Positions 8,244 to 58,019 of a stretch of 64,000 nt of DNA are shown here, in pieces. The stretch spans positions 65,162,001 to 65,226,000 of the forward strand of contig OZ336885.1 in the NCBI GenBank assembly GCA_965287045.1, given 5' to 3'. Within the stretch, counting starts at the first letter, position 1, and each line of letters starts with the position of its first letter. Source of the stretch: Carcharhinus amblyrhynchos. Taxonomy: Eukaryota. The notes under the pieces were generated by a model, which saw only the letters and a program-made list of their open reading frames with translations, was not told where the DNA came from and ran no database searches. The position numbers and the translations under genes were made by a program.

Positions 8244-8320
8244 TTATGTTGTATGATGTTTCTCAATCTCAGTGACCCCGTGTAACGTTTCATCTCCTGG
8301 ACTATTGGAGAAGTGGAAAG
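8244..8320 (-). CDS. Candidate terminal coding exon of the putative micro-exon gene: (A)FHFSNSPGDETLHGVTEIEKHHTT*
   Basis: Strong minus-strand acceptor tttttttttgtttcctttccacag. Phase-1 reading ends at TAA 8244-8246. Lies 342 nt downstream of the 21-nt exon at 8663. Confidence 0.3.
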
Positions 8321-8662
8321 CTGTGGAAAGGAAACAAAAAAAAATGGACAGCAAAAAATCGTTGTCCCTCCAACTCCATATGCACTGCTGCCCAAAACTC
8401 TCTGTAATTGTACTATGTTAGAAAGCTTTGTGTAACTCCTAAATTGACAATTACATCGGACGTTATGGCATTTGCTTGCATTGTTTTTTTTTCTGTCATT
8501 CTCTTCAGCGAAGAACAAATTGGCTTTTGAAACGCTGCTCGTATGACTAAAATAAACCCAAAATAGTGATTGCAACATCAAATATGCTTTGCTAGAACGT
8601 GCAGCATTGATTCAAAGGATCATCAATGGTAATGCAAAATGGAGAATTCGTTGACGACTCAC

Positions 8663-8683
8663 CTTCCCGACAGCGGGCTCGTT
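8663..8683 (-). CDS. Candidate 21-nt micro-exon, phase 1: (E)RARCRE
   Basis: ctgaacag|AACGAGCCCGCTGTCGGGAAG|gtgagt, preceded by an ~168-nt pyrimidine-rich, AG-free tract (8686-8853). Confidence 0.5.
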
Positions 8684-8934
8684 CTGTTCAGTCCGCAATC
8701 AGATAGGGAGAGTAATGGAGCAAGTGATAGTGCAAAATAGTGTAAAAGAGGTAGGTCAAGAGGGAGGGTACGATTAAGACAGAGGGAGTGAGGGATGGGG
8801 GATGAAAAATAAGGAAAATTAATGACAAAATGCACCACAAAAACAATGGTCAACTTATTTACTCATATAATTGATGATTGGAATTTGCAGTTTATTGTTA
8901 AGAAATTGTGAAATATGTTTTGTTTTTAGACAAT

Positions 8935-9875
8935 AATAGGGGGCGTCAATAGTAAGTTTGCAGATGACACTAAAACTGGTTACATGGTGAACAGTGAGAA
9001 CGGTTATCTCCAATTGCAGCGGGATCTTGAGTAATTGGGCCAGTGGGCTGACGAATGGCAGATGAGTTTAATTCAGACAAATGTGAGGTAATGCGTTTTG
9101 GTAGATTGAACCAGGGGAAGACTTATTCAGTTAATGTTGGGGCGTTGGGGAGAGTTAGAGAACAAAAAGACCTAGGAGTACATGTTCGTAGCCCCTTGAA
9201 ACCGAAGGCACATGCACAGAGTGGTGAAGAAGGCGTTCAGCATGCTTGGTTTGATCGGTCAGAACATTGAATACTGGACTTGGGACGTTGTGTTTATGTT
9301 GTACAAGACGTTATTTAGGACACACGGAATATTGTGTGCAATTCTGGTCGCCCTATTATAGAAAGGATACTATTATACTAGGAAGAGTGTAGAAAAGATT
9401 TACTAAGATGCTACCAGAACTTGATGGATTGAGTTATAAAAAGAGGCTGAATAGACTGGGACTTTTGCCTCAGAGGCTGTGGAGTGATCTTATAGAGGCC
9501 AATAAAATAATGAGGAACATAGACAAGTAGATAGTCAACATCACTCCACAAAGATCGAGGAGACTAAAACTAAAGGCATAGGTTTAAGATGAGAAAAGGA
9601 GAGATACAAAAGTGTCCAGACGGTCATTTTGTTCACGCAGAGACTGGTGAGTGTCAGGAACAAGCTGCCAGAGGTAGTAGCAGAGGCGGGTACAATTTTC
9701 TCTTTTGAGAAAGAGCATTGAAATAGTTGCGTGGCTACGATGGATATAGAGGGATATGGGTCAGATGCGGGCAATTGGGATTATTCTAAGAGTTTAAAAA
9801 GAAAAGGGCGGCATGGACAAGTTGGGGCAAAGGGCCTGTTTCCATGCTGTAAACTTATATGAATCTATGACTCTA
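8935..9875 (+). mobile_element. Older CR1 LINE 3' fragment (RT end to tail)
   Basis: aagtttgcagatgacactaaa (KFADDTK), FNSDKCEVMRFGR, tail ending ctatgactcta; multiple stops. Confidence 0.9.
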
Positions 9876-11518
9876 CATATGACTGTTGATCTCTCGAGTT
9901 TTTTTTTGTAATTTGTAACACTGCGTCCAACGCGCAAATACGTACAGAATTGTACAAATGCTATTGCTTGCATGTCTACTCATCAAAATTGCCTTTGACA
10001 TTGTGTTTAATTCAGTTAAGATATTATGAAGTCAGTGTCCAAATCCTATTCAGGATCCAAAATTATCTTGCCAAATGAAAACAAAAACATTTAACTTAAC
10101 CCAGGCTCCGTCGACAGTTCAATCCATATCAGGACAAGACAATTATCGAGTATCTGTTTCACAAATTCATAATACAGCCTGCAGCCCTTCCGATTCCGTA
10201 GCAACATAAGTGTAGCAAGTATAATACATTTCGTTAATATTACTTCAGACGAATTATTTCACAAACATAAAGAAGAGAATATTGCAGCCATCAGACAAAC
10301 ATTTATTTTATAATCAGCAGTAGTTGAAAATATAATGCGTGCAACAATTGTCACAGGCCTCTCTTTGCACAGAAGTGTTTGAAAACGTTCAACTCTTCAA
10401 TTCGGACGCACACACAAAAACATTTGATATATTAACTTTTCTTCAATTTGTTTCTCCTGCGATTCCGTTACAATTCTAAATTTAATAAAACAGCCTAAAG
10501 GAAATTTAAATCTGTGTCATGTACCTCATTAAACTAATACCTGTTCAACTCAGAACTACATGTAAAATACAGCAGCTTTGTCTGTGCGGATTTCAGAATT
10601 TACCGCTAGTGCAATCTTAACCTTCACAGCTATCTCAGAATAAATATATGCAAGTGCGGAATTACTCTGGCTTAGTCGCATGCTATAAGAGCATACTAAA
10701 AAGGAACTGTAGTAAATTGACAAATATTTATTTCCTGCGATATAAATAAACCCCTCAGTTGTAATATTGGTTCAAATTTAAAACAGAACCTCATTTCGTT
10801 TCCATAGCTTTCCTGAAATTTGAATGTGCATTAAACGATTGGTCAATTTGCTTTAAACGTTGACATATAATACCAATTTCCGTGAGTCCATAACATTCAT
10901 TAACGCACCTGCCTCCCAAAATCTGTAAGTCTATGGTCGCGTTGCCCACCAGCATTAAAAACTAGACAAATACTGACATATTTGTAATTATGTGGCAAAC
11001 ACTCATCCTTATATCTACGAACTGTACAAATGCCTTTGCCTCTTCTTGTTCTACCTGTTTTTTTTTAAGTAAACTGTCTAAGAATTCATATTTGTCTCAC
11101 TGGCACAAATTATGTTCTTCCATCGCTTCACATGTTTGCCAGGCAAAATATGACATCACATATGTTAATCGCATTGATTTTAGAACTTTGTCTTCTCCTT
11201 CTTTTGTTCAAGAGTGTGATCTGTTGCTCCATTGCCTTCGATTAAATGTGCATGCCTAAGTGCCCTATCTATTATTTTCTGTAGAGTAACCGTGTTCTAC
11301 CTTTCTGTGTCTCAATTCCATAACCGGTTTGTGCCTCTGCACTATGTTTTTTTTTTACTTTTGATACCTATTGGCATTTCTTAGTCCATTTTCATACAGG
11401 TTCTGTTGTCACTTTTCTAAAACTATATGCATCTCGATCTCAATATAGATTCCGTGTCCCGCCATGTCTTCCATGCATTTGCTCTATCTGCATGAGGTCA
11501 AATGCATTCCTAGGATCA

Positions 11519-11542
11519 TTATATATATATATATATATATAT
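11519..11542. repeat. (TA)n microsatellite
   Basis: Direct read. Confidence 0.95.
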
Positions 11543-11715
11543 GCACTTTCTCACAATATCAAATAAGTATGGAGAAATCCTGGATGTGGGGTGTTAGAAT
11601 TCTGGCATAAACGGATTTTATTTCATTTTTGACAACTTTTCAGTGATAGCTGGCTCTCATCATTCCGATTGTCCTAATTTCACACTTAAGTAAAACGAAT
11701 CCATTGCATCCTTAC

Positions 11716-11745
11716 CATATTTGCACCAGGCGAAATTTTTATCCT
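11716..11745 (-). CDS. Candidate 30-nt micro-exon, phase 1: (E)DKNFAWCKY
   Basis: ttctttttttccttttcctag|AGGATAAAAATTTCGCCTGGTGCAAATATG|gtaagg; near-consensus sites at both ends. Confidence 0.55.
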
Positions 11746-14687
11746 CTAGGAAAAGGAAAAAAAGAATTCTGCATAACACATTCTTGTGATGACATTACTT
11801 CTCAGATCCAGATAAAAAAAAGAGATACGGCAGGCACGAGACATATGCAGATCATATTCTTGTCCTTAGCAGAAGTGTTTCATCATTAATTGAAATAAAA
11901 TGGAAAAGTATTTATGACGAACAAAATAATAAAATTTTGTAGCTCATTTCATATTTTCAACTCGTTAATATGTGATATTCCAACATGTGTTTATTCTTCT
12001 GCATTGTGTTATATTAGAAGCTTCAGTAATATAAACCAATAATCGAAATAAATAATAGTGTGTTATTGCTCCCGCCATTCACCACACATTATGACGAAGC
12101 AGGTAGGTAAATTGAAAAACAAGGGAAGAACTTGATTGCCAGTATCAACCAGTGTTAGATTTAAAATGACTGAAACAATGACCAGATAGTTAATTGAGCC
12201 AAGGTTTATTATCCTCTGGATTGGCGAAACAAAATGAACGTTCGAGGTTCTGTTTTGGCGACAACAGCAGGGAAATTACATAAACTGTCGGACACTTGTG
12301 AAGACAGAGAACTTTCCAGATTTATCCATGCTCGTGAAATATGTTTTGTTTCGTTTCGATCGTCTGTGCAAGCCAAATTTTACGTGAAATTGAAGGTGAC
12401 TATTTCAAAATCAGCCTTTTGTGTTGAGTCGTCAAGCATTAGACAGTAGAGGCTGACGACGGATTCGTGAAAACAATCGTATTTGGTTCCTTTCATCAAC
12501 TGGATTTACACCCTAAAATGTTATCAATATTTATTGTCAGATTAAGCCTGGGAACGTTTTACAAAACCAGATTCATACACTGCAGGTTAATATGCAGGAA
12601 CTAACAGCAACAAATCACAACGCAATTAATTATCCGTAGTTCAACGTTGTACTTCCAAATCCACAGCAGCTTCTCATTTGCACATCGATAATGGAATTGA
12701 TTTCAGTTCATTTCACTTGATCCCATGCCTTAAAGAAAGCATCCACAACTACACCTCGTGATAATTCCTCCTTATGCATATAACAGTGGAAAATGATCCA
12801 AACCACAATTTGAAGACAAATTTTTGGTTCATAAGCAGAACTTCTTTCTTTATGTTTATTTTCCTTAATGACTAAGATGTCTCCGATGTTATCACTCACT
12901 GTCTCTATCAAATGACGAGATGGTTCACACTATAGGAAACATGGAAGAGACATTCTTTCTCATCTGTCGCTCCCAATGCTTTCCTATGATGGTAATCTTT
13001 GACGCACACAAATATGCAAATATTACTCTCACAGACAAATATGTGGCATCATATCTGTCACTTTTCAGAGAAAACATAACTCTAAAACAATCACGAATTA
13101 ACGAAAAGTATTTACTTCACAGGCGGCTGCGGAGAGAGTAAATAATGGCCCAAACATTTCTTTTCCTAACTGCTGTTTCCCTGTTAAATGAACTAACAAA
13201 GCATGCTCAGGTGTTTGCACTCATCGCATTCCCACAAAGGAATGGTAAATCTTCAACTGCGCGATCAGTGATGTTAAATAGTCAGTAAAATAACACATGT
13301 GCGAGACTGAAAAAAAAAAATGAGCGTGTATCTTGGCATTATTAATTTTTTCCTTGGTTCAAATTGTGAATTCGGGGCCTCAAATGGAATATGTTTTAAG
13401 TTAGGCTCATGCAATAATTCCGAAAAAACATTTAAGTGCTGAAATTTAGTGAAGTTCGAGAGGAATGAAAAAATACACACGGGGGTCACATTGTTTTTTT
13501 TATATATATATTTTTCAAATTATGCACGTTTCGGAGGTGGGATTTATCTGCTGCAATATTAAATGCGGTTTATTAGACGATTTCCTCGTGATGAAGCAAG
13601 GCGTTTTCTTTTAAGAAAGGGTAACCAATTCAAGCAGTTGTGCTGAGTTTAATTGCTAATGATAATTCGGAACAAAGAAAAATATATCTGAATATCTGAA
13701 CTCGAAACTTCTTAGCTTTTTATTTTCCACTTTGTCCAGGGCCGGGCGGTCAACAGTCGATGTTTAACGATGGTGTAATCTTGACTGAGAGTTTCCGGTC
13801 TGGATCCTGAGGTGCACATATTGCAATGCATCATTGAGGTATTTGTGAATTTAAGTGGATTGTTTGCTTCGGGGGAAAATACGTTACAACACATATTATG
13901 AAATGATTTCGGATTTGTTATCAACTTTTTTCAAAGCAATTGGGCTGCAGTGTTAATGAGCGAATTGAGTTTCTTCATAAATATACAACAAACTATTAAG
14001 GGGGGTGGCATGGGGATGGACGGACATGTTTGTGGGTGCGGTGGAGGCAGAAACTCTGTAGAAGGGAGCAAAATCATTAAAATAATTCGCGCAATTATTG
14101 GCAGCACTGAGAGCAAACGCAGATGGCTGACGTCATATTTCTAATTATATGGAGATTGTTTGAAATGGACAATGGAACAGAAAACGCAAACTTGTTGCTT
14201 ATTGAGTACAGTGTCTGCCAGCTAGAAATAATTGGATGTTGCTATATAACATGTTCAAACAGGGCACATGGGTTGCAACAGGAGATAAAGGCAAAGTTTA
14301 TGTGGTTTTGTGACATGGAAATCATGTTTCTTCAACAAATTTGCTTTTCTTCAGTAAGGAGCTTGTGCTGCGAATAATATGTCACAACGGGATGAATATT
14401 ACACGTGTCTCCACATGATTTATGCTAAATGTCTACGTCAATGTTGCTGCAGAAAACAGAATCTCAAATAATATGGGTCAACCCGCATGCATGCACGGAA
14501 GATGGGTTGCTATTCCAAAGCAAAAAGTCGACAACAAAAAAACGCATTCTAAGTTCGTTAAAATGCGATGAGATGAGTGTCATTCTATCTCAAACTTTTC
14601 AATTCACAGGGGTGATGGAGGTCAAAGGGTTGAAGAGATGGTGTTCCAGTTTGATGATGCCAGAAAATGAGGAAAGTAAGTATCTAC

Positions 14688-14910
14688 GAATTCTCTGCCC
14701 GTTGAAGTGGTGGAGGCTGCCTCGCTAAATATTTTTAACACGCAGGTTGATGGGTTTTTGATAAGAGAGGGGATTAAGGGTTATGGGGAGAGGGCGGGAA
14801 AGTGGAACTGAGCCACGACAGATCAGCCATGATCTTATTGAATGGCGGGGCAGGCTCGAAGGGATAGATGGCCTACTCCTGCTCTTATTTCTTATGTTCT
14901 TATGTTCTTA
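14688..14910 (+). mobile_element. Young CR1 3'-end fragment (same family as 6513-7240)
   Basis: Near-identical to 7018-7240, with the (ttcttatg)n tail. Confidence 0.95.
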
Positions 14911-15734
14911 TGAATGCAATTTCATGACAGAATATGAGGTAGTGTAGAATTCTTTGTACGAGGCCCTTCATTTGATTTTTACAATAATAAGCGGACAAGG
15001 TTAATGTACTTGTAAAGTGCCTCATTATATATTGAGAATTCACAACATGCCGGAAACAAATTGTACACTGCAAAGCTATTATACTGTGCATAATTTAAAT
15101 TAACCACATATTAGAAGTTTAAATCTCATTTTCAATTTCTAAGAATAGTGTGTCTTGGGCAACTTCGTTCTGAATGCAGCATCATGGGGCACAATGATAG
15201 AAGGCTAATTTTTTCGAATGCAATGGGGCAGGGAAAGACAGCTTTTGTTACCTGTTTTTGCCTGTACTAAATGATGTTTAATAGGGTTTTGTATGAAAGA
15301 GAGTGGATTTGTTCACAGTGCAATGTTCTTGGGTAGCGAAGCTGGAAATGTCTCTCAGGCTGATCGCGGGAGACAAATTCGGCCGATTAATTATCCAAGC
15401 TACAACGACTGACCTTCATTATCTGAATTTACAAGGCTTAAGTTTTCTAGGTAATGGTCTCATATTTCTGTTGGCAAGTGGGGCATTAGTTTCCAAGTTA
15501 ACAATAATCAATTTTGTGAGTGGATTCTCCAGTTTGATTGACAAGGCTGGGCAGCATATTAAAATGCTCAAAATAATATAATACTTTTTTTAACGATTTT
15601 GAGATTAAATCGGAGAGCACAGTCAACCCTCATTGAACGTGTCTCCCTCCTGATGCAAACATCGGCAAACCAATTCATTTTCGTTCTTTAAATATGCTGT
15701 CTTTTGCAGTCCACCTGTTGTTTGAATGTTTCAT

Positions 15735-17140
15735 AGTGTCACAGAGTCATAGAGGTTTACAGAACGGAAACAGACCCTTCGGACCAATGTGTGAATGCGG
15801 CCTTTTTAACACTTAATTTAGTCCCAATTGTCCGAGTTGATCCATATCTCTCTATACTCATCTTGCCCATGTAAATGATTATTTTTTTAATACAGAATTG
15901 TACCTGCCTCGACTACTACAGCTGATGCGTTCCAGGCACACATCACCCTCTGTGCGAAAAATAAATGCTCCTTTGGACCCTTTCATATCTCGCCCCTCTC
16001 AAATTAAACCTCCGTCCTCTATTTTTAGACTCTCCAATCTTTGGGAGAAGATATTGACAGATGAATACCCTGATTATTTTAAAAAACCCTCTAAGGTCAC
16101 CCATCAGACTTTTATGCTCCAGAGGGGTAAAAAAAAATCACAATGTTTTCAGTCTTATAACACAAAACATAACGTCCCAGGAGCATGCTATTAAATTTTC
16201 TCTGCAGTCGTTCTAGTTTAGTAATACATTTTCTATCAGAGTGACCAGGGCTGCAATCAGTATCTCAAGAGTGGCCTTACCAATGTCTTGCACAACTTCA
16301 ACAAGGCGTCAGAACTCCTGTATTCAATATGCTGACGAATGCAGCCATGATGTGGAGATGCCGGCTTTGGACTGTGGTAAACAGAGAAAGAAGTCTCACA
16401 ACACCAGATTAAAGTCCAACAGATTTATTTGGTAGTAAACGTCACTAACATTCGAGGTTTCCTCCTTCGTCTTACGAATGCAGAGTTCTGTTCACAAACA
16501 GAACATATAAAGGCACACACTGTTCACAGATACTGGTTAGAATGCGAATCTTTAGAGTTATTCAGTTCTTAAACTGCAGACAATGTAGGTGGAGATAGCA
16601 TTAAGCATTGGTTAAAGAGTTGCGTATTGTCTCCAGACAGGACAGTAAGCCCCGTCTGAAGACTGGATCTGTAACCCTCATCACTTGCCTGGGCTTGCAA
16701 CATCTCACTTATTGTCCTGTTTGGAGACAGTACACAGATCTTTAACCTATGCTTTATGCTATCTCCATTCATTGCCTGCACCTTTAAGAATTGATTTGCT
16801 GTAAAGTCTCACATTCTAATCAGTATTCTGTGTGTGCCTTTATATGCTCTGTGACCAGAACTCTCCACTCACCTGACGAAGGGGCAAACCCCAAAAGCTC
16901 GTGGAGTTTACTATCAAATACGCCTGTTGGACTTTAACCTGGTGTTGCGAAACTTCTTACTGACCAATGTAACCAAGCATGCCGAATGCTGTCTTCACCA
17001 CTCTGTCCATCTTTGTCACCAATTTCAAGAAACTATGGACCTGTATCCCTAAATATCTTCATTCTGTAACTCTACCCAACGCCATATCATTAGCTGGCCT
17101 GGTTCCATCTAGCAAAATGCGTCAGCTCAATTTCATCGAA
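15735..17140 (-). mobile_element. Older CR1 3' fragment interrupted by a Penelope hairpin element
   Basis: Begins with the reverse tail acagagtcatagaggtttacag, homologous to the reverse complement of 8935-9875. Resumes after 16960. Confidence 0.8.
16347..16960. mobile_element. Penelope-derived palindromic element (inverted pLTRs)
   Basis: aagaagtctcacaacaccagattaaagtccaacag (16388-16422) pairs with ctgttggactttaacctggtgttgcgaaacttctt (16924-16958), and the inner arms are also complementary. Imperfect flanking repeat ctgacgaatgcagcca / ctgaccaatgtaacca. Confidence 0.8.
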
Positions 17141-18385: not shown

Positions 18386-18406
18386 CAGCAGTGTAAATAT
18401 CCACCA
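18386..18406 (-). CDS. Candidate 21-nt micro-exon, phase 1: (V)VDIYTA
   Basis: ttcatttgtcttctcttatacccaacag|TGGTGGATATTTACACTGCTG|gtacat. Confidence 0.45.
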
Positions 18407-18579
18407 CTGTTGGGTATAAGAGAAGACAAATGAAGAATTGCAACATTTCGTTTCTTTCCCATGAACAGAAATCTAGTTCGGAGGAAACACATATCATACC
18501 AACACTGAAACCTCGAAAGGACTTTCTGCAATCCTACACAAGGTGTATACACATAACCCATGTCACACTATAACTGTAC

Positions 18580-18603
18580 CTTCAAAAATCCTTTCATCAA
18601 TAA
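18580..18603 (-). CDS. Candidate 24-nt micro-exon, phase 1: (V)IDERIFE
   Basis: ccttctctccttcctcttctgctgatttgcag|TTATTGATGAAAGGATTTTTGAAG|gtacag. Confidence 0.45.
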
Positions 18604-19028: not shown

Positions 19029-19061
19029 CTGTCCAAACGTATATTTTACACGATGGCACCC
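19029..19061 (-). CDS. Candidate 33-nt exon, phase 1: xVPSCKIYVWT
   Basis: ttttattgtatttacaaag|GGGTGCC...TTGGACAG|gtattc; AAG acceptor, weaker than the others. Confidence 0.3.
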
Positions 19062-20100
19062 CTTTGTAAATACAATAAAATTAGACACAACTATTTCTGT
19101 TTCTCTGTCTTTTTCTATTACTTGAAAATTATTTGTTTATATTCCCTCAGACCTTGCGACTGGATTGTTGTAGTCCATCTGAGCTCTTCACAACTTGTTT
19201 TCCGTCCTAACTTTGTCTGCTGTGGAAATTTAATTAGTTCTGCCTTGGCACTCCATTTATATAGGAAAATCACATTTAATACAACTTGTTGAAATTTATT
19301 GATTCCTGTTGCACACAACCTGTGGCAGCTTACAAGTTGAAGTTACTTACACTCATAGTCAGATTGTTGAAATCCTCTTCGCCGCGCTGTTGTTTATCAG
19401 TTTTCCTCTTCTCCCCCCGAAAACAAGTTTTTTTTTCGCAAATAATTAAATAGTGTACATTGCAAGTACCTTTTCAGGCACCAAATAAAAGTAAATGTCA
19501 CATTTTTTTTTCCTTCGTCAGTTATTATACCTCTCGAGGCATAAATTATCAAAATATATCCCCCTTCATTTAATGTAGGCATAGTGCAAAAAAAAACGGC
19601 ATCATTGGTTAAGAAGATGCAAGCTATTATACTGTGTAAATGTCAGGGCAGAGGGGCTTTGTTTTGCGAATTTTCGTCTATCTCCTTTTCTCAAATACAG
19701 GAACAAGATTAAATAGCTTGCAGTCAGAAAGCTTCTCAGCATGTAGCCAATTTACAAAACTTGCATCTGCTACATCAGATTCGTCCTTTATTAGGGAGGG
19801 CATTGCAGGACATCAGCTCTCCTTAACATCTGAGCTTTGAGTTTCAAGTGTTTTCTCAACAATCTTTCCCATGGATTTTAATTGCTTCAAGTTCCACCCT
19901 GTCTTAGTTCGCTTGGTTTCAAAGATTTTCCCATATGCTGTCTTTGCATTCAATCATGAAGACTGATGGGGGAAAAAAATGACTAACATCTCATCACCTT
20001 TAAGATGTTTCCACTGCTAATTTCCCCAGAGACTTTCTTTAGAGAATTATTTTTCAGTCAGGTTTTTTATTATGTTTGAATATACTCGGTGTGGTGTTGC

Positions 20101-20565
20101 ATCAAAAATAAAATCACACAGTAAAATAAGTTTTTCCTAAGTCAATCACGCAAACTTCGACCGATGCAATTAGGGAATCGATAAATGAATTTTCCACACA
20201 CAAAAAAAACATCAGCTGCAAGTTTGAAGGTGATGGCCTTTTAAAACTGCAGGTCCTCATCGGTGATTAGAGTCCCTCCAACACAATGGCCATGCAAGGG
20301 ATAAAACAAAGTGATGCAGCTCAAGGATTTTGCAATTAACATACGTAATGTTGCACTAATTTGAAAATAAAATGTAGACTTCCTTCACAGCGGGTGAGTC
20401 GCTTAGTGACCAGATCATTAAAACAAAAGTGACGCCAGAACGATGAACAAACAACGGTGAGGAGGATCAAGCTACTCAGCTGAAAACAGAAATATCCCAT
20501 AACATTGGCAAATGGCTTAGATTATGAGTTTTTTACTTTTGTTCATTTTTTCCCCAAACTCTGGC
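20101..20565 (+). repeat. Left arm of a ~460-bp long inverted repeat
   Basis: atcaaaaataaaatcacacagtaaaataag... is the reverse complement of the sequence ending at 21960. The match runs to ccccaaactctggc, pairing with gccaaagtttggg at 21501. Confidence 0.95.
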
Positions 20566-21500: not shown

Positions 21501-21960
21501 GCCAAAGTTTGGGAAAATGAAATAGGAACAAAAGACAAAAACTCATAATCTAAGCCATTTGCCAATGTTTTGGGATATTTCTGTTTTCAGCTGAGTACCT
21601 TGATCCTCCTCACCAGTTCGTCCATCGTTCTGGACTCATTCTTTTTAATGATCTGGTCACTATGTGACTCAACCACTATGAAGGAACTGTACGTTTTATT
21701 TTCAAATTAGCGCAACATTACGTATGTTAACTGCAAAATCATTGAGCTGCATCATTTTATTTTATCCTTTGCATGACCACTGTGTTGAAGGGACACGAAC
21801 CAACGATGCGGACCTGCAGGTTTAAGAGGCCATCACCTTCAAACTTGCAGCTGATGTTTTTGTGTGGAATATTTATTTATCAATACCCTTAATGCATCGG
21901 TTGAAGTTTGCGTGATTGATTTAGGGAAAACGTATTTTACTGTGTGAATTTAATTTTGAT
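21501..21960 (-). repeat. Right arm of the long inverted repeat
   Basis: Reverse complement of 20101-20565 with scattered substitutions and small indels. Confidence 0.95.
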
Positions 21961-22132
21961 GGAAGTAAATATAAAACAGAAGCAATGTTAAACATTTCAA
22001 ACTGCTTTGACGATACAAGAAGCTGCACTTTACCTCAGCGATCCTAAAAAAAAAAGGTGCCCCTCAAATACATCGTTCGTGAAAAACATACAACCTCTCA
22101 TCTAGTTTTGTTGGTCCCTCAGTGAATGTGAG

Positions 22133-22135
<3 letters not shown>

Positions 22136-22167
<32 letters not shown>
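22136..22167. repeat. (CT)n microsatellite
   Basis: Direct read. Confidence 0.95.
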
Positions 22168-22170
<3 letters not shown>

Positions 22171-22179
22171 ATGCAGTAC

Positions 22180-22275: not shown

Positions 22276-22296
22276 GTTTTTGAAGTTTATCAATAC
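22276..22296 (-). CDS. Candidate 21-nt micro-exon, phase 1: xIDKLQK
   Basis: tttcgtttttgtttcccatag|GTATTGATAAACTTCAAAAAC|gtgagt. Confidence 0.55.
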
Positions 22297-23627: not shown

Positions 23628-23648
23628 GGGCTTTATCTTTTTCTGACT
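23628..23648 (-). CDS. Candidate 21-nt micro-exon, phase 1: xSEKDKA
   Basis: ttgtttatcttctttccgatag|AGTCAGAAAAAGATAAAGCCC|gtaagg. Confidence 0.55.
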
Positions 23649-25262: not shown

Positions 25263-25292
25263 GAAAAAAGTGCGACATGAATTCTTCTAAAT
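25263..25292 (-). CDS. Candidate 30-nt micro-exon, phase 1: (D)LEEFMSHFF
   Basis: gaggtttcag|ATTTAGAAGAATTCATGTCGCACTTTTTTC|gtaagt; 116-nt intron from the 25409 exon. Confidence 0.4.
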
Positions 25293-25408: not shown

Positions 25409-25429
25409 CTTCTTTACATTTTACCACGG
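25409..25429 (-). CDS. Candidate 21-nt micro-exon, phase 1: (A)VVKCKE
   Basis: ttgtattatttcctaaag|CCGTGGTAAAATGTAAAGAAG|gtgaga. Confidence 0.45.
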
Positions 25430-26762: not shown

Positions 26763-26783
26763 CAACAGAAAGTCTCTGAATGC
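26763..26783 (-). CDS. Candidate 21-nt micro-exon, phase 1: (G)IQRLSV
   Basis: aatattacaactcag|GCATTCAGAGACTTTCTGTTG|gtaagg; weak pyrimidine tract. Confidence 0.35.
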
Positions 26784-30356: not shown

Positions 30357-32025
30357 GAACATAAGAACATAAGAAATAGGAGCAGGAGTAGGCCATCTCG
30401 CCCCTCGAGCCTGCCCCGCCATTCAATAAGATCATGGCTGATCTGTCGTGTCTCAGTTCCACATTCCCGCCCTGTCCACATAACCCTTAAGCCCCTTGCC
30501 TATCAAAAACCTATCAACCCGCGTCTTAAAAATATTTAGCGAGGCAGTCTCCACCACTTCAACGGGCATAGAATTCTTGAGTGAAGAAGTTCTTCCTCAA
30601 CTCCGTGCTAAACAGCAGCCCGCCCCCCCTTTATTTTGAGGCTGTACCCTCTAGTCCTACTGTCCTTTATGAGCGGGAAGAGTCTCTCCACCTCTATCTT
30701 ATCCACCCCATTCATCATCTTATATGTCTCAATGAGATCTCCCCTCATTCTTCTAAACTCCAACGAGTACAAGCCTAGTTTATTCAGCCTCTCCTCATAG
30801 CTCAACCCCCTCAACTCCGGTATCAGCCTAGTAAACCTCCTCTGCACTCCCTCCAAGGCCAAAATATCCTTGCGTAAGTCCGGCGACCCAAAACTGCACA
30901 CAGTACTCCAGCTGCGGCCTCACCAGTGCCCTATACAGCTGCAGCAAGACCTCCCTACTTTTATAATCAATCTGCCGCGCTATGAGGGCCAACATCCCAT
31001 TCGACTTCCCGACAACCTGCTGCACCTGCAAGCTGTTTTTTTGCGACTCATGCACAAGGACCCGAGGTCCCTCTGCACCGTCGCCTGCTGCAGTTTTTCG
31101 CCACGTAAGTAATAGTCCTTCCTACCATTATTCCTACCAAAGTGGACCACCTCACACTTGCCAACATTAAATTTCATTTGCCAGTTCCTGGACCACTCGC
31201 CCAGCTTATCTAGATCCTTCTGCAGACTCTCCACACTCTCCGCACAATTTGCCGTTCCACCAATCTTGGTGTCATCTGCAAATTTCGACACCATAAACTC
31301 GGTTCCCTCCTCCAGATCATCTATATAAGTGGTAAATAGCTGAGGCCCCAGCACCGACCCCTGGGGCACTCCACTCGTCACCAACTGCCAATCCGAATAG
31401 CGCCCACTAACCGCCACTCGCTGCCTCCTATTTGACAACAAATCCTCTATCCACGCGAACACCCTACCCCCAACTCCATGCCCCCTTACTTTCTGCAATA
31501 ACCTCTTGTGAGGTACCTTGTCAAACGCCTTCTGAAAATCAAGAAAGACCACATCCACCGGCTCTCCTCTATCCACCGCCCTAGACACATCCTCATAGAA
31601 CTCCAATAAATTTGTCAGACGTAACATTAGCCGTTTTCCAATCTTCCGGCATTTCTCCGGAATCCAGCGACGTTTGGAAAATAACCACCAAGGCATCCAC
31701 TATCACCTCCGCCATTTCTTTCAGTACCCTCGGATGCATTCCATCCGGTCTTGGTGAGTTGTCCACAATCAGTCCCTCCAGCCTGTCGAGCACCGCCTCT
31801 CTAGTAACAATAGTGTCATTGAGACCCTCCAGTCCTATCACCTTTCCATCGCTAACACCCGGCAAATTATTCACGTCCTCCTCCGTGAAGACCGAAACAA
31901 AAAAGTTATTCAAGACCTCAGCCATTTCCCCATCCCCTACCACTAAGTCCCCCCTCTCATCCTCTCAGAGTCCACCGTTCACCCGAACCAGCCTCTGCCT
32001 TTTTATATATTTATAAAAACTCTTA
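30357..32025 (-). mobile_element. Young CR1 LINE, ~1.67-kb 3' portion with RT, internally deleted
   Basis: RT motifs VFLDFQKAFDKVPH, GVPQGSVLGP and KFADDTK (ORF 30980-31696). Upstream PRPDGMHPRVLKEMAE...WKTANVT. Reverse tail gaacataagaacataag at 30357. Confidence 0.95.
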
Positions 32026-38600: not shown

Positions 38601-38763
38601 NNNNNNNNNNNNNNNNNNNNNNNNNNNNNNNNNNNNNNNNNNNNNNNNNNNNNNNNNNNNNNNNNNNNNNNNNNNNNNNNNNNNNNNNNNNNNNNNNNNN
38701 NNNNNNNNNNNNNNNNNNNNNNNNNNNNNNNNNNNNNNNNNNNNNNNNNNNNNNNNNNNNNNN
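38601..38763. other. Assembly gap (N run)
   Basis: 163 N bases. Confidence 1.
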
Positions 38764-41455: not shown

Positions 41456-41459
41456 TCTG

Positions 41460-44400
41460 GCATCATAACATACCTTCGAGTTTCTGACCTGGATTATAAC
41501 AGCTCTTGTATCCTATTTCCTGGGTAATGCCCACAAGGATTATGTATGCCTTCTTGAATGGTCTGCCTAAATTTGATGCTCAAATTTCGGACTTTTTGGA
41601 CCCTTAGTTTTTTTTCCAATACTCACTGGCAAGGCACCATTAAATGCATTTATCCTGCAGTCATTGGAGTTTGCTGTATGAATCAACTCACACTTGCACA
41701 ATGTTAAATGAAGTTCGCCATTGCTCTTCCCAGTTGAGCAACATCAGTCCACTAACTAAGTCTCTCCTCCTTACTCTACAAAAAAACACCAAAGATTTTC
41801 TTGTCATCAGCGAACTTACTTGGTGTAAATTGTACAAGGAGATGTCAGTTGTTAATGAACACAACGGACATCAATGGCCCCAACACCGGTCTTTGGGTGC
41901 GCCACTGACAGCAAAATTCCTTTCATAAAACTAGAGTTTCAGCCTCAAGATTTACTTTCTATTGACAGGCCAGATTTTGACTCACGTTCGCAACTTCCCT
42001 GGCATTCCCGTTCAAATATCTGCTAGCTCGTCCTTATTAATCTTAACGTGCAAACATAATGTTCTCTATACTCGTGAATATCCACGCCATTCACACTGCT
42101 GAGAAGCTAACACATGATTATTCATTTATCTTTATGAACACCTCGGAATATCTTATATCCAACAGTCCTTTTATTTAGGAGTGCTTGCTCTTCAGCCCTA
42201 GAGGAAGACATTGACCCTGAACTCTCGATATTATTTTATTTTTAAAAGATTCCTACTTTTCAATTACTTGTAAGCCTGCAAGTGCCTACTCTCGATCCAC
42301 GGTTGTCTGATCTTTCCAGTGGCATATGCACATGATATCCACAAATTCAAAAATGTGAAATCTGGACTAGCAATAACTCTTTTCATAAAGACTGAACAAA
42401 TTACAGATTAATGTTCACTACGCCTAAAATGCCACCCAATAACATTACAAATAATTGTCCGGCTCCCTGAGTGTATCACTGCACCCTTACATAAGGCAAT
42501 CTATGGGCTCCCACAACAGTTTTCCTCCATGTGCATGAATTTTCTTACCCCGTCAAATACTTTCACACTTCAATTACAATTCGGAGGTTGAATTCTTTTC
42601 GAACTATATAACGTTGTTCCACTCAGTTATCGGAGATTCGCCTAAATTGGTGATCCTACATCACCCTCTGATTGCTGCGAAGTCCGCCGTTTAATCCCAG
42701 CAAATTAAGATACACCCATGTAGTCTCACTTGAAGATGCAACAGAAGTATCATTCTGCATTACACAACTCGTGCACTCATTTACATGTAATGCAATGTCC
42801 CTCCTCTCTGATTTCCCTCCTTATCCCATCAGACATTTCTATACCCTGGAATACTTCGTTCACTGTTTCTAACTTTTCTTGACCTATGTTTCAGTGATTC
42901 TAAAAGAAAACATACTCTTCCGTGAGCTAGTCAAACCTCCAGATTAATCTCATTTAGAAGGCTTTAATGTGACATTACATGAAGTGCATCTTGCATTTCC
43001 AAACTTTCAAATTATCATTTCCATGTCTTCCCTTTGTAGCCAAACGGGCCATCTAAAATGGCGTTTTGTAAAGCACCCTCGGACAATTGGACAAGAAACT
43101 AAACCGGCAGGCTGCAGTTTATTGACAGAGACAAACAGGCTGCAACCCTGACGAGTGAATAAACAGGACATGGGTCATCTCCAGGATGAATGGGACTTCA
43201 CAGTCACACTGGCTTGTTTCATCTCCAAGATGGAAGAGACATTCTGGTGACACTGGGTTGTGTGCCAGACATAAAGGCACCATGAACCCTTATTTAGGAG
43301 GGAGGTATGTGACCTATGTGCCTCCAACACCTACAGACATGGCCGCTGGGGACATACCCAGAGGTCGATGTGGTAGCACCTGATTGGACTCTTATCGATC
43401 AGGGTGATCAAGTCCTGATCAATTGATTGGCAATGGGCAAAAAGGGGCGTAAAACCAAATGGGGTATAAAGGGTGCTGCACAACCAGGAATCGCTCTCTT
43501 TCTCTGACCCCAAGAACGAGCTACAACAATGGAGAACATCGCCATAAAGAGGAGAGCCACCACGCCCGAGAAGGAAGGAAGGAAGAAAGACAAGAGCCAG
43601 AGTGCCATCCCAGACTAAACGACCAGACTACGCAGACGACTACCGAGACCGACGCACAGATAAAGGCCAATATCAGCTTGGATATTTGCCAGTCACGCAA
43701 CGTAAAGTCAAGGTCTTGTATTGTACTTGAATTCTAGTATTTTCCTGTAAGATGTCATTGTTGGTCGGGGGGTGATTATTGAGTGTGTGGGTTTAAATAA
43801 ATATTGGCTGTACTAATAAGACGACTACTCGTAGTTATTTGTCCACCGTATAAGGGTTAAGACAGACCTTGTGGTAGGCAACACCTGCATGTTTTGCAGA
43901 ACGAATTTTCATTCTATATCTGACTGAAGCTCTCTGCCATTGACTATATGCATTGTGCCCCATTCCTGTGCCAAATTATTTACGACCACCCCTGCAAAAC
44001 GACCAATCATCCAAGCATGGATGTTTAAATATTTTCCATTCGAGTGCCAGCTACCCCACAAACTGTACCAGTGATTCAAGTATCTAACGCCATCCCTCCT
44101 ACACCGATGTTGATTCATTGCTGATCTGTATTTCTATTCGTGTCCTCAGTGTTTCGAGCCACGAAAGGCAACTCAAATATTATGACATTGGATTTACCAC
44201 TACTTGAACTCGCATGCAACTCCTAAAACTCGTGCTGTAAGCACACAAGTATGTTACCAAAGATGTTGCTGCCAACTTACACGTCGACCATTGCCTGTTC
44301 AAACTACCTCACCCCCGCCAGCACCGAATACATTTCAGAATGTTCTGCAGATTCTCCGAGGCCCCCCCTGAACCCAGCACCAAGGAGGCAACGCATTATT

Positions 44401-44700
44401 CGAGAGCCGGGTTTTCTGCCATAGAAACGTCGGTAAACTCCACATCCTATAATGTAATTTAACACTAATTACCCATCGGCATATGAACTCGCCAATTGTC
44501 ACCGCATTGCCACAGATTCGTCAGATTTTTTTTTTCACTAAGGGCCCAGCATTTTGCAGCAAGGCATATCTATTTGAGAGGTCGATGAGCACAGTCATCT
44601 CCTGCATTACACGCTTACCCCCTAATACTATTGCTTCTGCTACCCAATACCTTGCATCTGTGCGATCATTCCTTTCGATGTGACAATTTTGCTAAGCATG
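41460..44700 (-). mobile_element. Old, internally deleted CR1 remnant including an ORF1 SGNH-esterase-like region, split by a solo LTR
   Basis: ORF 43909-44118 (RCRRDGVRYLNHWYSLWG...GRFAGVV) and RRFYGRKPGSRIMRCLLGAG near 44375-44435 resemble the CR1 ORF1 esterase. Reverse RT-like pieces lie near 41800-41900. Confidence 0.55.
43035..43883 (+). mobile_element. Solo LTR (849 bp), probably Gypsy-type
   Basis: Starts TGTAGCC and ends GGCAACA (TG...CA, 6/7 inverted terminus). Flanks cctt / cctg (4-bp TSD, one mismatch). TATA ggggtataaagg at ~43461-43472; AATAAA near 43796. Confidence 0.8.
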
Positions 44701-44879
44701 CTATTCATGTGCAAAACAGTCATTTAGGAGTTGCCGTTTGACACACTTCCTGTACATACAATCGTCAGAGTCACTGGAAGTGTCCTTAGTTTACAGCATT
44801 TTGCAACAAACCAAATGGTCATACTTATTTTCTGCAGACGTTGATTCGGAACTTCACAACACAATATTCTGAGGAACCA

Positions 44880-45490
44880 AAGGCACAGTATCCTGGGTTC
44901 TAGGTTCCATAGTAGCCATAGTTCCTGGGTTCGATTCTCGGCTGGGGTCACTGTTTGTGTGGAGTTCGCACATTCTCCTCGTGTCTGCGTGGGTTTCCTC
45001 CGGGTGCTCCGGTTTCCTCCCACAGTCCAAAGATGTGCGGGTTAGGTTGATTGGCCATGCCAGGAAATAACCCCTTAGTGTCCAGGGTAGCGGAGGTTAG
45101 AGGGATTAGTGGGTATAATATATAGGGATGTGGGGATAGGGTCTAGGTGGGATTGTGTTCGGTGCAGACTCAATGGGCCGAAGAATATAAGAACAAAAGA
45201 AATAGGAGCAGGACTAGGCCATCTAGCCCCTCGAGCCTGCCCCGCCATTCAATAAGACCATGGCTGATCTGTCGTGTCTCAGTTCCACATTCCCGCCCTC
45301 TCCCCATAACCCTTAATCCCCTTGCCTATCAAAAACCTATCAACCCGCGTCTTAAAGCTATTTAGCGAGGCAGCCTCCACCACTTCAACGGGCAGGGATT
45401 CTTAAAGCTATTTAGCGAGGCAGCCTCCACCACTTCAACGGGCAGGGATTCTTTCTGCACTGTAGGGTTCTATGATTGTATGATTCTACT
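44880..45490 (+). mobile_element. HE1/V-SINE-like SINE interrupted by a young CR1 3' end
   Basis: B-box gggttcgattctc; conserved core cacattctcctcgtgtctgcgtgggtttcctccgggtgctccggtttcctcccacagtccaaagatgtg; tail ctgcactgtagggttctatgattgtatgattcta. Confidence 0.9.
45181..45450 (-). mobile_element. Young CR1 3' fragment with a 50-bp tandem duplication at its 5' junction
   Basis: Reverse of the 7020-7240 sequence; cttaaagctatttagcgaggcagcctccaccacttcaacgggcagggatt occurs twice (from 45351 and 45401). Confidence 0.92.
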
Positions 45491-45705
45491 ATAATTATTC
45501 TTCTGTTGGTTTATATTTATTCACAAAACTTACATAAAGAGTACAAAACTAGTTGGCAACAAAGGGTTCACTTCATAGCTTCAAGCGCTTACCGCCCTTT
45601 AGGCTACATCAAAGATGTTTTTTGTTACGGTGAAAGCGTGTATATGAAATGGAAAAAATATTTTCAGTTATGTTGCAGGAACATAACATTCAAAATATTT
45701 TATTA

Positions 45706-46107
45706 ACATAAGAACATAAGAACATAAGAAATAGGAGCAGGAGTAGGCCATCTGGCCCTTCGAGCCTGCCCCGCCATTCAATAAGATCATGGCTGATCTG
45801 TCGTGGCTCAGTTCCACTTTCCCGCCCTCTCCCCATAACCCTTAATCCCCTCTCTTATCAAAAACCCATCAACCCGCTTCTTAAAAATATTTAGCGAGGC
45901 AGCCTCCACCACTTCAACGGGCAGAGAATTCCAGAGATTCACCACCCTTTGAGTGAAGAAGTTCCTCCTCAACTCCGTTCTGAACCGCCCCCCCCCCTTT
46001 ATCTTGAGGCTGTGCCCCCTAGTCCTACTGTCTTTTTTGAGCGGGAAGAGTCTTTCCACCTCTATCCTATCCATCCCATTCATCATCTTATACGTCTCAA
46101 TGAGATC
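45706..46107 (-). mobile_element. Young CR1 3' fragment
   Basis: DLIETYKMMNGMDRIEVER...GYGERAGKWN, near-identical to the end of ORF 6589-7140; (aacataag)3 tail. Confidence 0.95.
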
Positions 46108-46600
46108 GATGATATCTTCATTCTGCATTTTTGGAACAGCAATGAGATGTTTGACATCACATGCGGACTGATGCAAGAACAGTGTCTTCATCACTGCCAT
46201 TAGTCTTTTGAATGAACCTCCCATTTATAAAGCTAAAATCTGGCTGCGCCCTAACCATGAGTGTAACGCTCGCTTCTGAACACTGTTCTTTGTTCCCTTC
46301 GACGCACTTTACGAAAGTTACGTTGTGTTTGTGCAGCAAACAGTAGAAACGACTGTTCACTGTATCTCAATGCATTCGGAATAGTATATAAAGTCAAATA
46401 CAACCATGTTCCACCGTCTACTTAATATAGTCACGATATGGATTCATTGCAGCAAGATTTTGTTTCCCAAATATTGTACCCTCATGATTGAAATTCCATT
46501 TCTCTTTTCCTGAAATCTCATGCTTTGTTTCGAACTTGCAGAAAATGTTTGCCGATTTCTAATTAAGAATGGAGCAAAATAGGTTACGTAATATTTACTT

Positions 46601-46604
<4 letters not shown>

Positions 46605-46648
<44 letters not shown>
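46605..46648. repeat. (CA)n microsatellite just downstream (minus sense) of a candidate exon donor
   Basis: Direct read. Confidence 0.95.
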
Positions 46649-46651
<3 letters not shown>

Positions 46652-46668
46652 TGTCATAAATTCCTTAC

Positions 46669-46698
46669 CAGCTTGACACTGCACGAGATTAGTAGGAC
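46669..46698 (-). CDS. Candidate 30-nt micro-exon, phase 1: (G)PTNLVQCQA
   Basis: atgtttatttatgtaatcttag|GTCCTACTAATCTCGTGCAGTGTCAAGCTG|gtaagg. Confidence 0.4.
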
Positions 46699-48079
46699 CT
46701 AAGATTACATAAATAAACATTTATTTTCTGCAGTTGAATTCATTTTACAACAACAAAAAATGGGCAACGACAATTCACCGATATTTCAAAATGAAATTCC
46801 AAACGATATCTGGCATGTGTACAATCCAAATTCATGGAACATGCCATAAATCATCAACCATTATGTTGTCAAAGTCACGCAGATTGTTTTTTTAGTACTG
46901 ATACAAAAAGGCATAAAATGGCTAGAAGACGATCAGTTAAATTAACACTTAGAATTTACAAACACCCGTAATTCCAATTTCAACATCACCATGAACACGT
47001 CACACTTATGCATGTGAACGTTTTGCAACATGTATGGCGATGGAACGAATTAAATTCGTCGAACATTTAATCCAGAACAGCAGTGTCAATAAAGTGGCTA
47101 GAAACGCATCATTGTAACTAACAAATGCTAATTATTGGATTGAAATATTATGACTTTCATTTGAAATCAATCACCAATAACAATGATAAGCGGGATGACC
47201 AGATATGTAAAAAGCACAGTGTTTTCAATCATTTAGTAAAATGCAACTGAGGTGTCGATTCTGCAAAGTTTGGAACAAGTCACTGAAGTTTTGCTAATGC
47301 AACTGAACCAGTAATTCTATGCCTAGAGAAATAACTTTACAAGTGCAACCTGTTTGACATCAGATGTGTTTCCAAATGATCAGTTGAAATACTCCGAAAT
47401 TCTAAAGGGTGAGAAAATGTGTTTGCAAAATAGAGATCAAGTTTTAAAATATAGATTACAACTTTTCTTGATCAAGTCAGAAGAAGAAAGCTTGGCCAGA
47501 AGACACATATATTTCGGGTATTGGATTCAATTTGATTTTTGGTCTGCAATTAGCTTATTCAAATTTGGACGCATCATCGTCCAAATCATGCGTGCAAGAG
47601 GAAAACGAAACATGAGAAACATCTATCTGCGCATGTGTTTTGGACTATACCGGAGTTGATTTTGTTGTGTCATTCGTGTTTCAAACGCGAAATGTTTCAA
47701 TTGATTTCAACCGCTTACTCCAACCAGTAACCTTTGGGCAATTTCACAAAACATATTTAATTCAGACTGCGAGTTGATAAGAGCTGTTCGAAGTCTGAAT
47801 CAGCAATAATAAGTTAATATCCGTCTCAACGCCTAAAGATCCTTAATGGTTGTTTTCAACTGTGAGAGGATCCTGAGTTGAACCAGTTGTTTTTTTTTAA
47901 AGGTCTATATTGAATTCTATGAGGCAGCCTCAGTGACAAGGGATTTTAAGAGCGAAGAATGTCAAAACTACAACAGGCAGCTACGAACTCACCAAAGCCT
48001 TGAAAACTGAGCAAACATTTTTTTCCCAAAATTTTCAAATGCGTTCATAGGAATGTAATTAAGATTGAAAAAAAAGGAG

Positions 48080-48365
48080 AGACTCAATACAGGGACAAGA
48101 TACTCAATGGAAGTTCCGCATCTTCAAATCCACATGGCTCTGGGCTCTTTCCGTCAGGATTAAAAACATCCAGGAGTAAGTTGATTGGCTAGCTAAAAAT
48201 TGTCCCTTAATGTCTTGGGATGCATAGGTTACAGGGATTAGCGGGTGAATGTGTAGGGATATGGGGGTAGAGCCTGGGTGGGATTGTGTTCGGCGCAGAC
48301 GCGATGGGCCGAAGGGCCTATTTCTACACTGTAGGGTTCTATGGTCAATGATGTTCTACGATCTA
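48080..48365 (+). mobile_element. HE1-like SINE with a degraded 5' end
   Basis: ttgattggct...gggattagcggg...gtgggattgtgttcggcgcagacgcgatgggccgaagggcct...cactgtagggttctatg. Confidence 0.8.
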
Positions 48366-49830
48366 TAAGATTTTATCCAGTACGAGACGCTTAGCCGGTC
48401 CAAAATGTTGGAGATCTACCTCAAGACGAAAAGACTTGAACGTTCTGCCTGAGCCTGCCAATTTAGAATATTTGCTTGATCTTGCTTTTCAGTTAATAAC
48501 AGTATTAGCAAGTCATTTCGTAGAATCCAGACTAAAATGAAAACGTCTCCTAGACTTTTCTCAAGGAAAAGAAAACAATGTTCCTGAGATTGACGTTGAC
48601 ACCTGTTAACAGATTGACTCAATATCAAACTGAACTGTAATCACTTTCAGGAAACTTCACGTGGATTTTTTTTTCGCTCGAGCCAGAGGAGATCAGAACC
48701 TTTTCCTTGCAAGTTTTTGACTCTCATAAAACTGTAAACTAACGGAACGCCAGACGTCCAAAATCCTGACATACTGGTCATTAGTATTGAAAGAGAGTGG
48801 TCCAATTAAAAAAAGTCAAACCTGGGCAAAAAAAAATCAAGAATTTCCAGGTAAGCGCATTGAAATAAATACACGGTACGTAGTTTACAACTGAATTAAA
48901 CAGAAATAAGAGTAAACACAACACAAATAAATATGCATGGAAGTTACTCTCAACGTCGACTTTTCTGGTAGAAGTTTTAAATCCCCGGCGGACAAAATAA
49001 AACATGAGATAACTCAAGCATGATGACATAAACATCACTTGGACCATCAAACTGCGATCAATGGAGATGCCAAAATTATTAGCAGACGTTAAAATGTATG
49101 CATCACGCCGTCGAACAGCAATGAGCCATGTAGTTGGATCTGCATGTCTACTTGTAGGTAGAAGGGTTAGCCTGGGAAAGAGAAGAATGCCCACTCCGCC
49201 TGCAATGGTACAACCAACAGCTAAGAAGCCATTGATTTCTCTGGCCGAATGTTTCACAGTGACTTAGAGTGGAGCCCCAAAAATATCGAACATTCCCAAG
49301 AGAGCTGTGAATTGATTTGTCCCAGCATCAGAAAAAAAAGGAAAAAAAACAAGCATAATAACAACCAGAGGGCAGAATTCACTGAATGTCAAAGAACGTA
49401 CAAGACATACACACACCTTTGATGACATCAGAAATGGAGAAATGCATTGGCCAGCATCACTTCAACCTGACAGATATCTGTAAATCAGCACAGTTGTGTC
49501 TATTGATTCTGCCCTTTTCTCTGATGTGGACATTCAATCTTCTCCTGTCATAGGTTTTTCCCTCATTGTTTCATCGATTTGTCCTTCGCTTATCGTGAAA
49601 TCCGGATAGTGCATTGAACATGTACAAAAATAAGATGCCCATTTATATGAATCCTACAACTGCAAGACACCTCCTTTATAGTAGTGCAGCAATCGTGGAC
49701 TCCATTGTTTTGAAATAAAACTCTCCATTACTATTTACATACTACAAATGACAGAGCAGCATATGCCACCACAGCTCAGCTTCTTCCGGGATCACACATT
49801 AATATCACAAATTCTTAATCATTTCCTTAC

Positions 49831-49851
49831 CAGTCTTATATCTGTTCAGTT
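49831..49851 (-). CDS. Candidate 21-nt micro-exon, phase 1: (E)LNRYKT
   Basis: ctgctttattccccag|AACTGAACAGATATAAGACTG|gtaagg. Confidence 0.55.
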
Positions 49852-57990: not shown

Positions 57991-58019
57991 AGAGAGCATC
58001 TGTCAATCCACTACTCAAT

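Follow-up and report, generated by a model that had tools for sequence, protein, structure and literature searches.

The genome of the shark Carcharhinus amblyrhynchos (assembly GCA_965287045.1) contains a 64,000-nucleotide (nt) stretch in which very short exon-like units follow one another on the minus strand. This stretch, the window, covers positions 65,162,001–65,226,000 of contig OZ336885.1 (here C16). The locus raises the question of whether these units belong to a gene and, if so, how far the gene extends and what it might encode. An earlier note listed 12 such units at 8.2–49.9 kb of the window and proposed an unannotated, lineage-specific gene built of symmetric phase-1 heptad micro-exons, similar to the tails of butyrophilins and chicken BG proteins. 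The answer favored here, with a probability of roughly one half, is that the window holds 21-nt exons of a single 1.7-Mb minus-strand gene, of which it would be only a slice. The product would be a coiled-coil rod followed by a B30.2 domain, comparable to a stretched butyrophilin tail without immunoglobulin (Ig) domains.

The raw description of the 12 units is accurate. All of them lie on the minus strand at the reported positions, each preceded by AG and followed by GT. Seven measure exactly 21 nt, nine end in G, and none contains a stop in phase 1, in which they join to 98 residues without a stop. Candidate units were scored with a generic splice matrix at a cut-off of at least 5. At this threshold, the interval of 8.2–49.9 kb contains five 21-nt units on the minus strand and none on the plus strand, where the earlier note had also seen no comparable set. 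The note had proposed a control against shuffled sequence, and this control is clear: 100 local dinucleotide shuffles of the interval gave a mean of 0.44 and a maximum of 2 units, and none reached 5. The enrichment of 21-nt units in the interval is real.

The grading of individual units was based on a splice model trained on 45 strong 21-nt units, all located outside the window. The antisense strand of 469 kb served as the null, chance expectations are given per 42 kb, and a unit is called firm if no antisense unit reaches an equal score. Four units, all on the minus strand, are firm phase-1 exons by this measure. The 21-nt heptad exon at 49831..49851 has a trained score of 22.1, which is matched or exceeded by 29 sense and 0 antisense units, and the corresponding counts are 53 and 0 for the heptad exon at 25409..25429 (score of 15.7, Cys at codon 5) and 47 and 0 for the 21-nt exon at 23628..23648 (score of 18.0). 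A near-identical peptide to that of 25409..25429 is encoded by an exon 74 kb further downstream. The fourth, a 30-nt aromatic-rich exon at 11716..11745, has a score of 22.5, which no other 30-nt unit reaches on either strand of the 469 kb, and it would break the heptad register as a stutter or hinge. Three further phase-1 exons are probable: the 30-nt exon at 46669..46698 (11.7; 0.09 chance units expected), the 21-nt exon at 22276..22296 (generic score of 11.1, trained score of 12.7; 0.36 expected), and the 21-nt exon at 8663..8683 with Cys at codon 5 (11.6; 0.54 expected). The 21-nt unit at 18386..18406 is borderline (10.0; 0.63 expected). The other four minus-strand units are at chance level: 26763..26783 (21 nt, not counted as an exon; 6.2; 1.9 expected), 25263..25292 (30 nt; 7.4; 1.3 expected), 19029..19061 (33 nt; 2.4; 3.9 expected), and 18580..18603 (24 nt; 7.6; 1.25 expected). 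Consequently, since a third of the units, including three of the five that are not 21 nt long, are at chance level, the joined peptide presented earlier is probably not a true product.

The surroundings of the window were examined in the same way. From +105 to −365 kb relative to the window (approximately 470 kb), 21-nt units number 60 on the minus strand but 3 on the plus strand, and each other length from 12 to 48 nt is represented by only 1–8 units on the minus strand. None of the 60 sense units has a stop in phase 1, while 21 and 16 have one in the other two phases. The window lies inside this minus-strand block of 21-nt exons, which extends from +103 to −361 kb with a median spacing of 4.1 kb between detected exons. 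Across 59 exons of 21 nt, the residues Leu, Ile, Val, Met, and Phe (LIVMF) make up 2, 76, 12, 7, 19, 3, and 3% of codons 1 to 7, respectively; at codon 5, Cys accounts for another 32%. The resulting consensus is [ED]-L-x-K-[CL]-[KQN]-[SA]. Judged from these sequences, the spacing of codons 2 and 5 would suit a coiled coil in which they occupy a and d and the split acidic codon falls at g, and the same a/d pattern is carried on by exons of 36 and 27 nt elsewhere in the chain. At −136 to −108 kb, where the heptad block has expanded more recently, approximately 16 similar 21-nt exons are densely clustered within duplicated blocks of low copy number.

How far does the chain extend? The exon classes follow one another in order on the minus strand and are read in a single open phase. 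Exons of 27, 30, and 36 nt occupy the upstream part, from +265 to +110 kb, which includes a 22-kb tandem duplication. The 21-nt block follows, and the exon class switches sharply at its limits of +103 and −361 kb. Nine tandem pairs of 27- and 36-nt exons then lie at −387 to −527 kb, all nine copies having retained AG/GT and an open frame, and further 27- and 36-nt exons continue to −1.42 Mb; a few exons of 27–30 nt at −727 to −740 kb are rich in serine, threonine, and proline (S/T/P). The stretch from −950 to −1,350 kb was covered by seven 10-kb samples (70 of 400 kb), six of which carry typical rod exons. From −1,350 to −1,560 kb, the contiguous sequence contains the last rod exons and a same-strand B30.2 exon; exon-like units are then scarce for approximately 90 kb, up to the next chain. 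Around −1.40 Mb, short splice-like units recur on both strands; they seem to represent a local inverted repeat and not exons.

The terminal B30.2 exon is located at C16:63,735,740–63,736,264 on the minus strand, at about −1.426 Mb (E of 1.7e-25 with a custom profile and 4.8e-13 with Pfam SPRY, and no PRY match in Pfam). It starts with a phase-1 acceptor, as in all six C16 paralogues, and ends with a stop followed by poly(A) hexamers; its 175 codons are open in all six paralogues. On the basis of the one-strand exon chain running to this B30.2 exon, the gene is placed on the minus strand of C16 at ~63.735–65.43 Mb, ~1.69 Mb in all. A single gene is the simplest reading of the chain and a likely one. 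It would be some 40 times larger than the 42 kb assumed at the outset. The search of the flanks that had been suggested with the 12 units delivered only in part: a B30.2 exon was found 1.43 Mb downstream, and neither an IgV exon upstream nor a convincing transmembrane exon appeared.

The sense-minus-antisense excess of 21-, 27-, and 36-nt units amounts to 138 units (~1,200 residues) in the 1.22 Mb that were counted. When extrapolated over the remaining 0.48 Mb, this corresponds to roughly 200 exons, 1,800 rod residues, and a product of 2,000 residues, and this estimate is probably low because weak exons are missed. At 0.15 nm per residue, the rod would be about 250 nm long.

The same type of B30.2 exon occurs elsewhere in the genome. 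Near the window, none was detected in 1.614 Mb of contiguous sequence with a five-sequence profile (best E of 0.93), and genome searches with Pfam PRY/SPRY gave none on C16 among the 150 scored of about 375 candidates. In a genome search with the B30.2 exon itself (150 of 333 candidates scored), six C16 exons ranked first at 35–100% identity, and among the matches listed, none of this type lies between 63.74 and 66.44 Mb. The closest paralogous B30.2 exon is at C16 66.436 Mb (59% identity). Others are found at C16:63068074 (plus strand) and C16:63148851 (minus strand), which face each other 80 kb apart, and at C16:61084230 and C16:60448814. Two family-like exons on C9, at 103955189 and 106383661 (103.96 and 106.38 Mb), adjoin the class I cluster of the major histocompatibility complex (MHC). 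These six further exons, four on C16 and two on C9, mark the ends of other family genes. A plus-strand sister chain extends from +371 kb, first with 21-nt exons and later with 36- and 27-nt exons, towards the B30.2 exon at 66.436 Mb, so that it and the gene of the window appear to be arranged head to head. C9 holds all 82 MHC class I matches; the gene of the window, being on C16, is thus not MHC-linked.

Relatives of the gene could be recognized in other cartilaginous fishes. In a tree of 13 rows, drawn without true butyrophilins and without the two C9 exons, the six C16 B30.2 domains and a bamboo-shark protein (52%) form a clade with a support of 100/100 that excludes the five TRIM-like domains and the one teleost protein in the tree. 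A full HMMER search with the B30.2 domain gave 1785 matches at E<=0.001. Of 160 proteins compared, 18 score clearly higher with a profile made from the C16 exons than with a TRIM-like one, and the named ones all come from chimaera, skate, electric ray, or sharks, with RefSeq models in seven chondrichthyan genera. These sequence matches place the family in chimaera, rays, and sharks, and together with the exon block they bear out the lineage-specific heptad micro-exon gene that had been proposed. RefSeq labels the relatives as TRIM39-, TRIM58-, TRIM69-, A33-, butyrophilin-, or nuclear-pore-anchor-like. SPRY is the sole Pfam domain in all seven relatives scanned, with no Ig, RING, or B-box; the TRIM-like names reflect only the B30.2 domain. 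The best Protein Data Bank match of the B30.2 domain is BTN3A1 (E of 8.7e-19).

The chimaera RefSeq model XP_042192744.1 (P0057) unites the whole layout within its 1697 residues. It begins with a hydrophobic stretch and a basic cluster, continues as a long rod in which the motif [ED]LxxC occurs 11 times, and then passes through S/T/P repeats to a B30.2 domain of this type. In a catshark model, a 9-residue stretch shortly before the B30.2 domain matches the exon at −1,412,784 in seven of nine positions. The RefSeq isoforms of relatives differ by single in-frame cassettes only: the electric ray has blocks of 6 and 9 residues, the chimaera a block of 9, and the catshark length steps of 9. Blocks of 6 and 9 residues are the expected result of skipping 18- and 27-nt exons, as judged from these gene models. 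The alternative splicing anticipated in the earlier note is thus indicated, but only in the relatives. Several broader searches were negative. One distant teleost protein was the only long homologue of the B30.2 domain among 193 candidates in a word-indexed database, a heptad-profile search gave no match among 1591 candidates, and P0057 residues 370–900 reached a best score of 0.87 in the ESM Atlas, below the useful mark. A single-sequence AlphaFold2 model of the skate relative P0153 contains long helices at 3–57 and 67–105; its mean predicted local distance difference test score was low (45), and no fold search was based on it. A literature search, which could not reach most subscription journals, turned up no paper describing the family.

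At the 5' end, the domains expected of a butyrophilin or a TRIM protein were sought. No match to Ig, RING, or B-box families was found in 134 open frames of at least 92 residues in the 5' region, two frames spanning joins being left out, and the 42,805 frames read across 1.614 Mb were free of IgV and RING motifs. Candidate first exons at +295,104 and +304,745 were indistinguishable from chance and were rejected. A comparison of the two head-to-head 5' regions revealed nothing.

How such a gene might work can be outlined as follows. Each 21-nt exon would contribute one heptad, with Glu or Asp at g, Leu at a, Cys or Leu at d, and Lys, Gln, or Asn at e, and each 36+27 pair would contribute three. 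The exons would be spliced into one message. All of them are symmetric and in phase 1, so duplication or skipping keeps the frame; the length of the rod can therefore change in evolution and probably also by splicing. Two chains might pair in parallel, so that a rod of ~250 nm carries a B30.2 domain of each chain at its far end. This rod would likely be cytoplasmic, either free or anchored via a short N-terminal hydrophobic segment, and could act as a spacer or tether for a target bound by the B30.2 domain. The B30.2 domain is also the one feature that hints at an immune role. A broader idea can be put forward only tentatively: the genes may form an undescribed, ancient family of cartilaginous fishes, with at least eight members, some of more than 1.5 Mb with ~200 exons of 21–36 nt, which would function as modular molecular rulers. 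Exon duplication or skipping would set, in steps of one or three heptads, the distance between the anchor and the paired B30.2 heads on a disulfide-stitched rod of hundreds of nm. Such an immune or structural device would have no counterpart in bony vertebrates.

Several points weigh against the single-gene, rod-plus-B30.2 reading. The joins between the exons of this gene are predictions from the genome, and neither a start or anchor exon has been fixed nor a convincing signal or transmembrane exon found. No sign of selection emerged from the duplicated exons, whose conservation does not clearly exceed that of the adjoining sequence. A comparison of the window exons with P0057 gave no significant exon-level match: an orthology that looked suggestive by eye failed its controls, as equally good scores were obtained in 302 of 2000 shuffles of the exon order and in 6 of 40 controls of the spliced alignment. 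Moreover, the RefSeq N-termini in the family are unreliable, and that of P0012 looks derived from a long interspersed nuclear element (LINE). Core cysteines, S/T/P repeats, and hydrophobic N-termini would also fit a secreted protein. Since 70 of the 400 kb between −950 and −1,350 kb were covered, a gene boundary without B30.2 could hide there. The lack of a conservation excess of exons over flanks in recent duplicates and the four chance-level units might even suggest chance splice-like motifs or the remnants of a dead gene. This explanation is very improbable in view of the 20-fold strand excess at exactly 21 nt, the 60 units free of phase-1 stops, the shuffles that never reached the count of the window, the 175-codon B30.2 exon open in six paralogues, and the RefSeq relatives in seven chondrichthyan genera.

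Two other explanations accept the exons and differ in where the product goes or where the transcript ends. An extracellular product of the same giant gene, with a signal peptide, inter-chain disulfides of Cys at d, a mucin-like hinge, and an extracellular B30.2 domain, is a serious although rather unlikely possibility. Hydrophobic starts occur in the models P0057, P0153, and P0088, a furin-like basic motif is present around residue 60 of P0057, and S/T/P-rich segments are shared by P0057 and the gene of the window; the frequency of Cys at codon 5 and a signal-like first-exon candidate at +295 kb fit as well. However, that candidate is one of 13, and only one N-glycosylation sequon lies inside 67 confident 21-nt exons holding 27 Asn (junction-spanning sites uncounted). 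According to the positive-inside rule, a basic cluster after a hydrophobic stretch, as in P0057, favors a cytosolic C-terminus. The B30.2 domain of butyrophilins is described as intracellular in the accessible part of PMC12841164. The cysteine-bearing BG tails are likewise cytoplasmic, and BTN3A1 is the best solved relative; for these reasons, a cytoplasmic rod is preferred over a secreted one, by about two to one. It is less probable, and on the whole doubtful, that the chain is not one transcript and that its 5' part, including the window, is a shorter gene or a major isoform ending before B30.2, whose product would be a soluble rod of heptads similar to the chicken zipper protein. Its end might be the candidate alternative last exon at 8040..8320 on the minus strand, which has a strong acceptor, a stop after 25 codons, and three poly(A) hexamers. 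The acceptor at 8320 is equalled by 4 of 3782 minus-strand AG sites in the window and is the sole one of the 25 acceptors with a score of at least 9 (both strands, 469 kb) that has no donor and has two or more poly(A) hexamers. The sparsely sampled part of the chain and the sharp changes of exon class also leave room for a shorter form, and BG genes can truncate their tails through intron read-through, as the available text of PMC5938342 describes. Nevertheless, acceptors of this strength are not commoner on the sense strand (11 sense, 14 antisense), the 21-nt exons resume from −2.4 kb below the window without a gap or a start exon, and P0057 joins comparable segments in one model. A last exon at 8320 is unproven, and the stop at 8244, taken earlier as the end of the gene, is probably not its main end.

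Various repeats are scattered in and around the gene. At C16 ~64.63–64.79 Mb (−531 to −375 kb), cassettes of 14–21 kb with ~92–94% identity form a tandem array, each combining a 27-nt and a 36-nt rod exon with an endogenous retroviral element and pieces of CR1. Host exons have thus been multiplied along with a provirus. A second, intronic retroviral element at −910 to −903 kb has open frames of 574, 318, 851, and 635 residues. In the window, one LINE family, of the CR1 type by its features, occupies 6514–7245, 14688–14915, 30357–31699, 45181–46107, and 51010–53230, with reverse-transcriptase frames (RVT_1 E of 8e-22 at 30983–31699). A 15-nt unit at 52379–52393 has good splice sites and a rod-exon-like start; it lies inside a LINE copy and is probably due to chance. 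An inverted duplication of ~470 bp (87% identity) at 20097–20565 and 21501–21964 sits between two exons. The segment at 57000–62000 is richer in GC, has a weak DDE_Tnp_4 match (E of 0.008) and seven other genome matches at 68–87%, and looks like a decayed Harbinger-type DNA transposon. A 33-nt unit at 61385–61417, with very strong splice sites and an open phase 1, was set aside as it sits in an old dispersed repeat; it is possibly an exonised piece of a transposon. Bases 38601–38763 (163 in total) are N.

If the single-gene reading is correct, several Mb of seemingly gene-free shark chromosome hold some of the most exon-rich genes of vertebrates. Of these, current annotation seems to retain just the B30.2 fragments, under names such as TRIM-like or nuclear-pore anchor-like. 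The family would then provide a natural test of how symmetric micro-exons are recognized across 4-kb introns and of growth through the duplication of an exon together with its intron. A heptad-exon/B30.2 design used without Ig domains, in another heptad register, would also bear on the origin of butyrophilins and BG.

The gene can be compared with several known systems. Butyrophilins (BTN/BTNL) have a short heptad region followed by a terminal B30.2 domain, according to the accessible parts of PMC8813856 and PMC12841164. The shark gene shares this arrangement in order, strand, and phase, and a splice link would be expected from its relatives. However, its rod would comprise ~200 exons where butyrophilins have a few, the searches revealed neither an IgV nor an IgC exon, and its B30.2 domain forms a divergent clade of its own when set against TRIM-like rows. 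The usual MHC linkage of butyrophilins does not hold for the C16 gene, the two family-like B30.2 exons on C9 notwithstanding. In chicken BG, as described in the portion of PMC5938342 that is available, many 21-nt exons with a split first codon encode one heptad each, the cytoplasmic tail carries cysteines, and the number of exons varies. The shark gene resembles BG and the zipper protein in its long run of such exons and in the cysteines of the rod; the core of BG is at codons 4 and 7 (the same portion of PMC5938342), whereas the shark core is at codons 2 and 5. BG has IgV and transmembrane segments and, as far as the available text of PMC8813856 goes, no B30.2; the shark gene has B30.2 and no IgV that could be found, adds 27/36-nt pairs, and is far longer. 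Schistosome micro-exon genes (MEGs), which the earlier note had invoked, also have many very short exons, and here the parallel ends: the accessible part of PMC10526429 describes secreted proteins of at most 189 residues and mentions neither a heptad rod nor B30.2, in contrast to an estimated shark product of ~2,000 residues. The likeness would be convergent at most. TRIM/B30.2 E3 ligases likewise combine a coiled coil with a C-terminal B30.2 domain, but RING and B-box are absent from the seven relatives scanned and from the 5' region. The nearest architecture is probably that of guinea-pig enterophilin-1, in which a long heptad zipper of ~30 heptads is reportedly joined directly to B30.2, without Ig domains, in a mammalian protein. 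A role of enterophilin-1 in SNX1/EGFR trafficking is given in the available section of PMC13749957. The shark gene is not a TRIM; it resembles the tail of a butyrophilin or BG protein and yet is a member of neither family.

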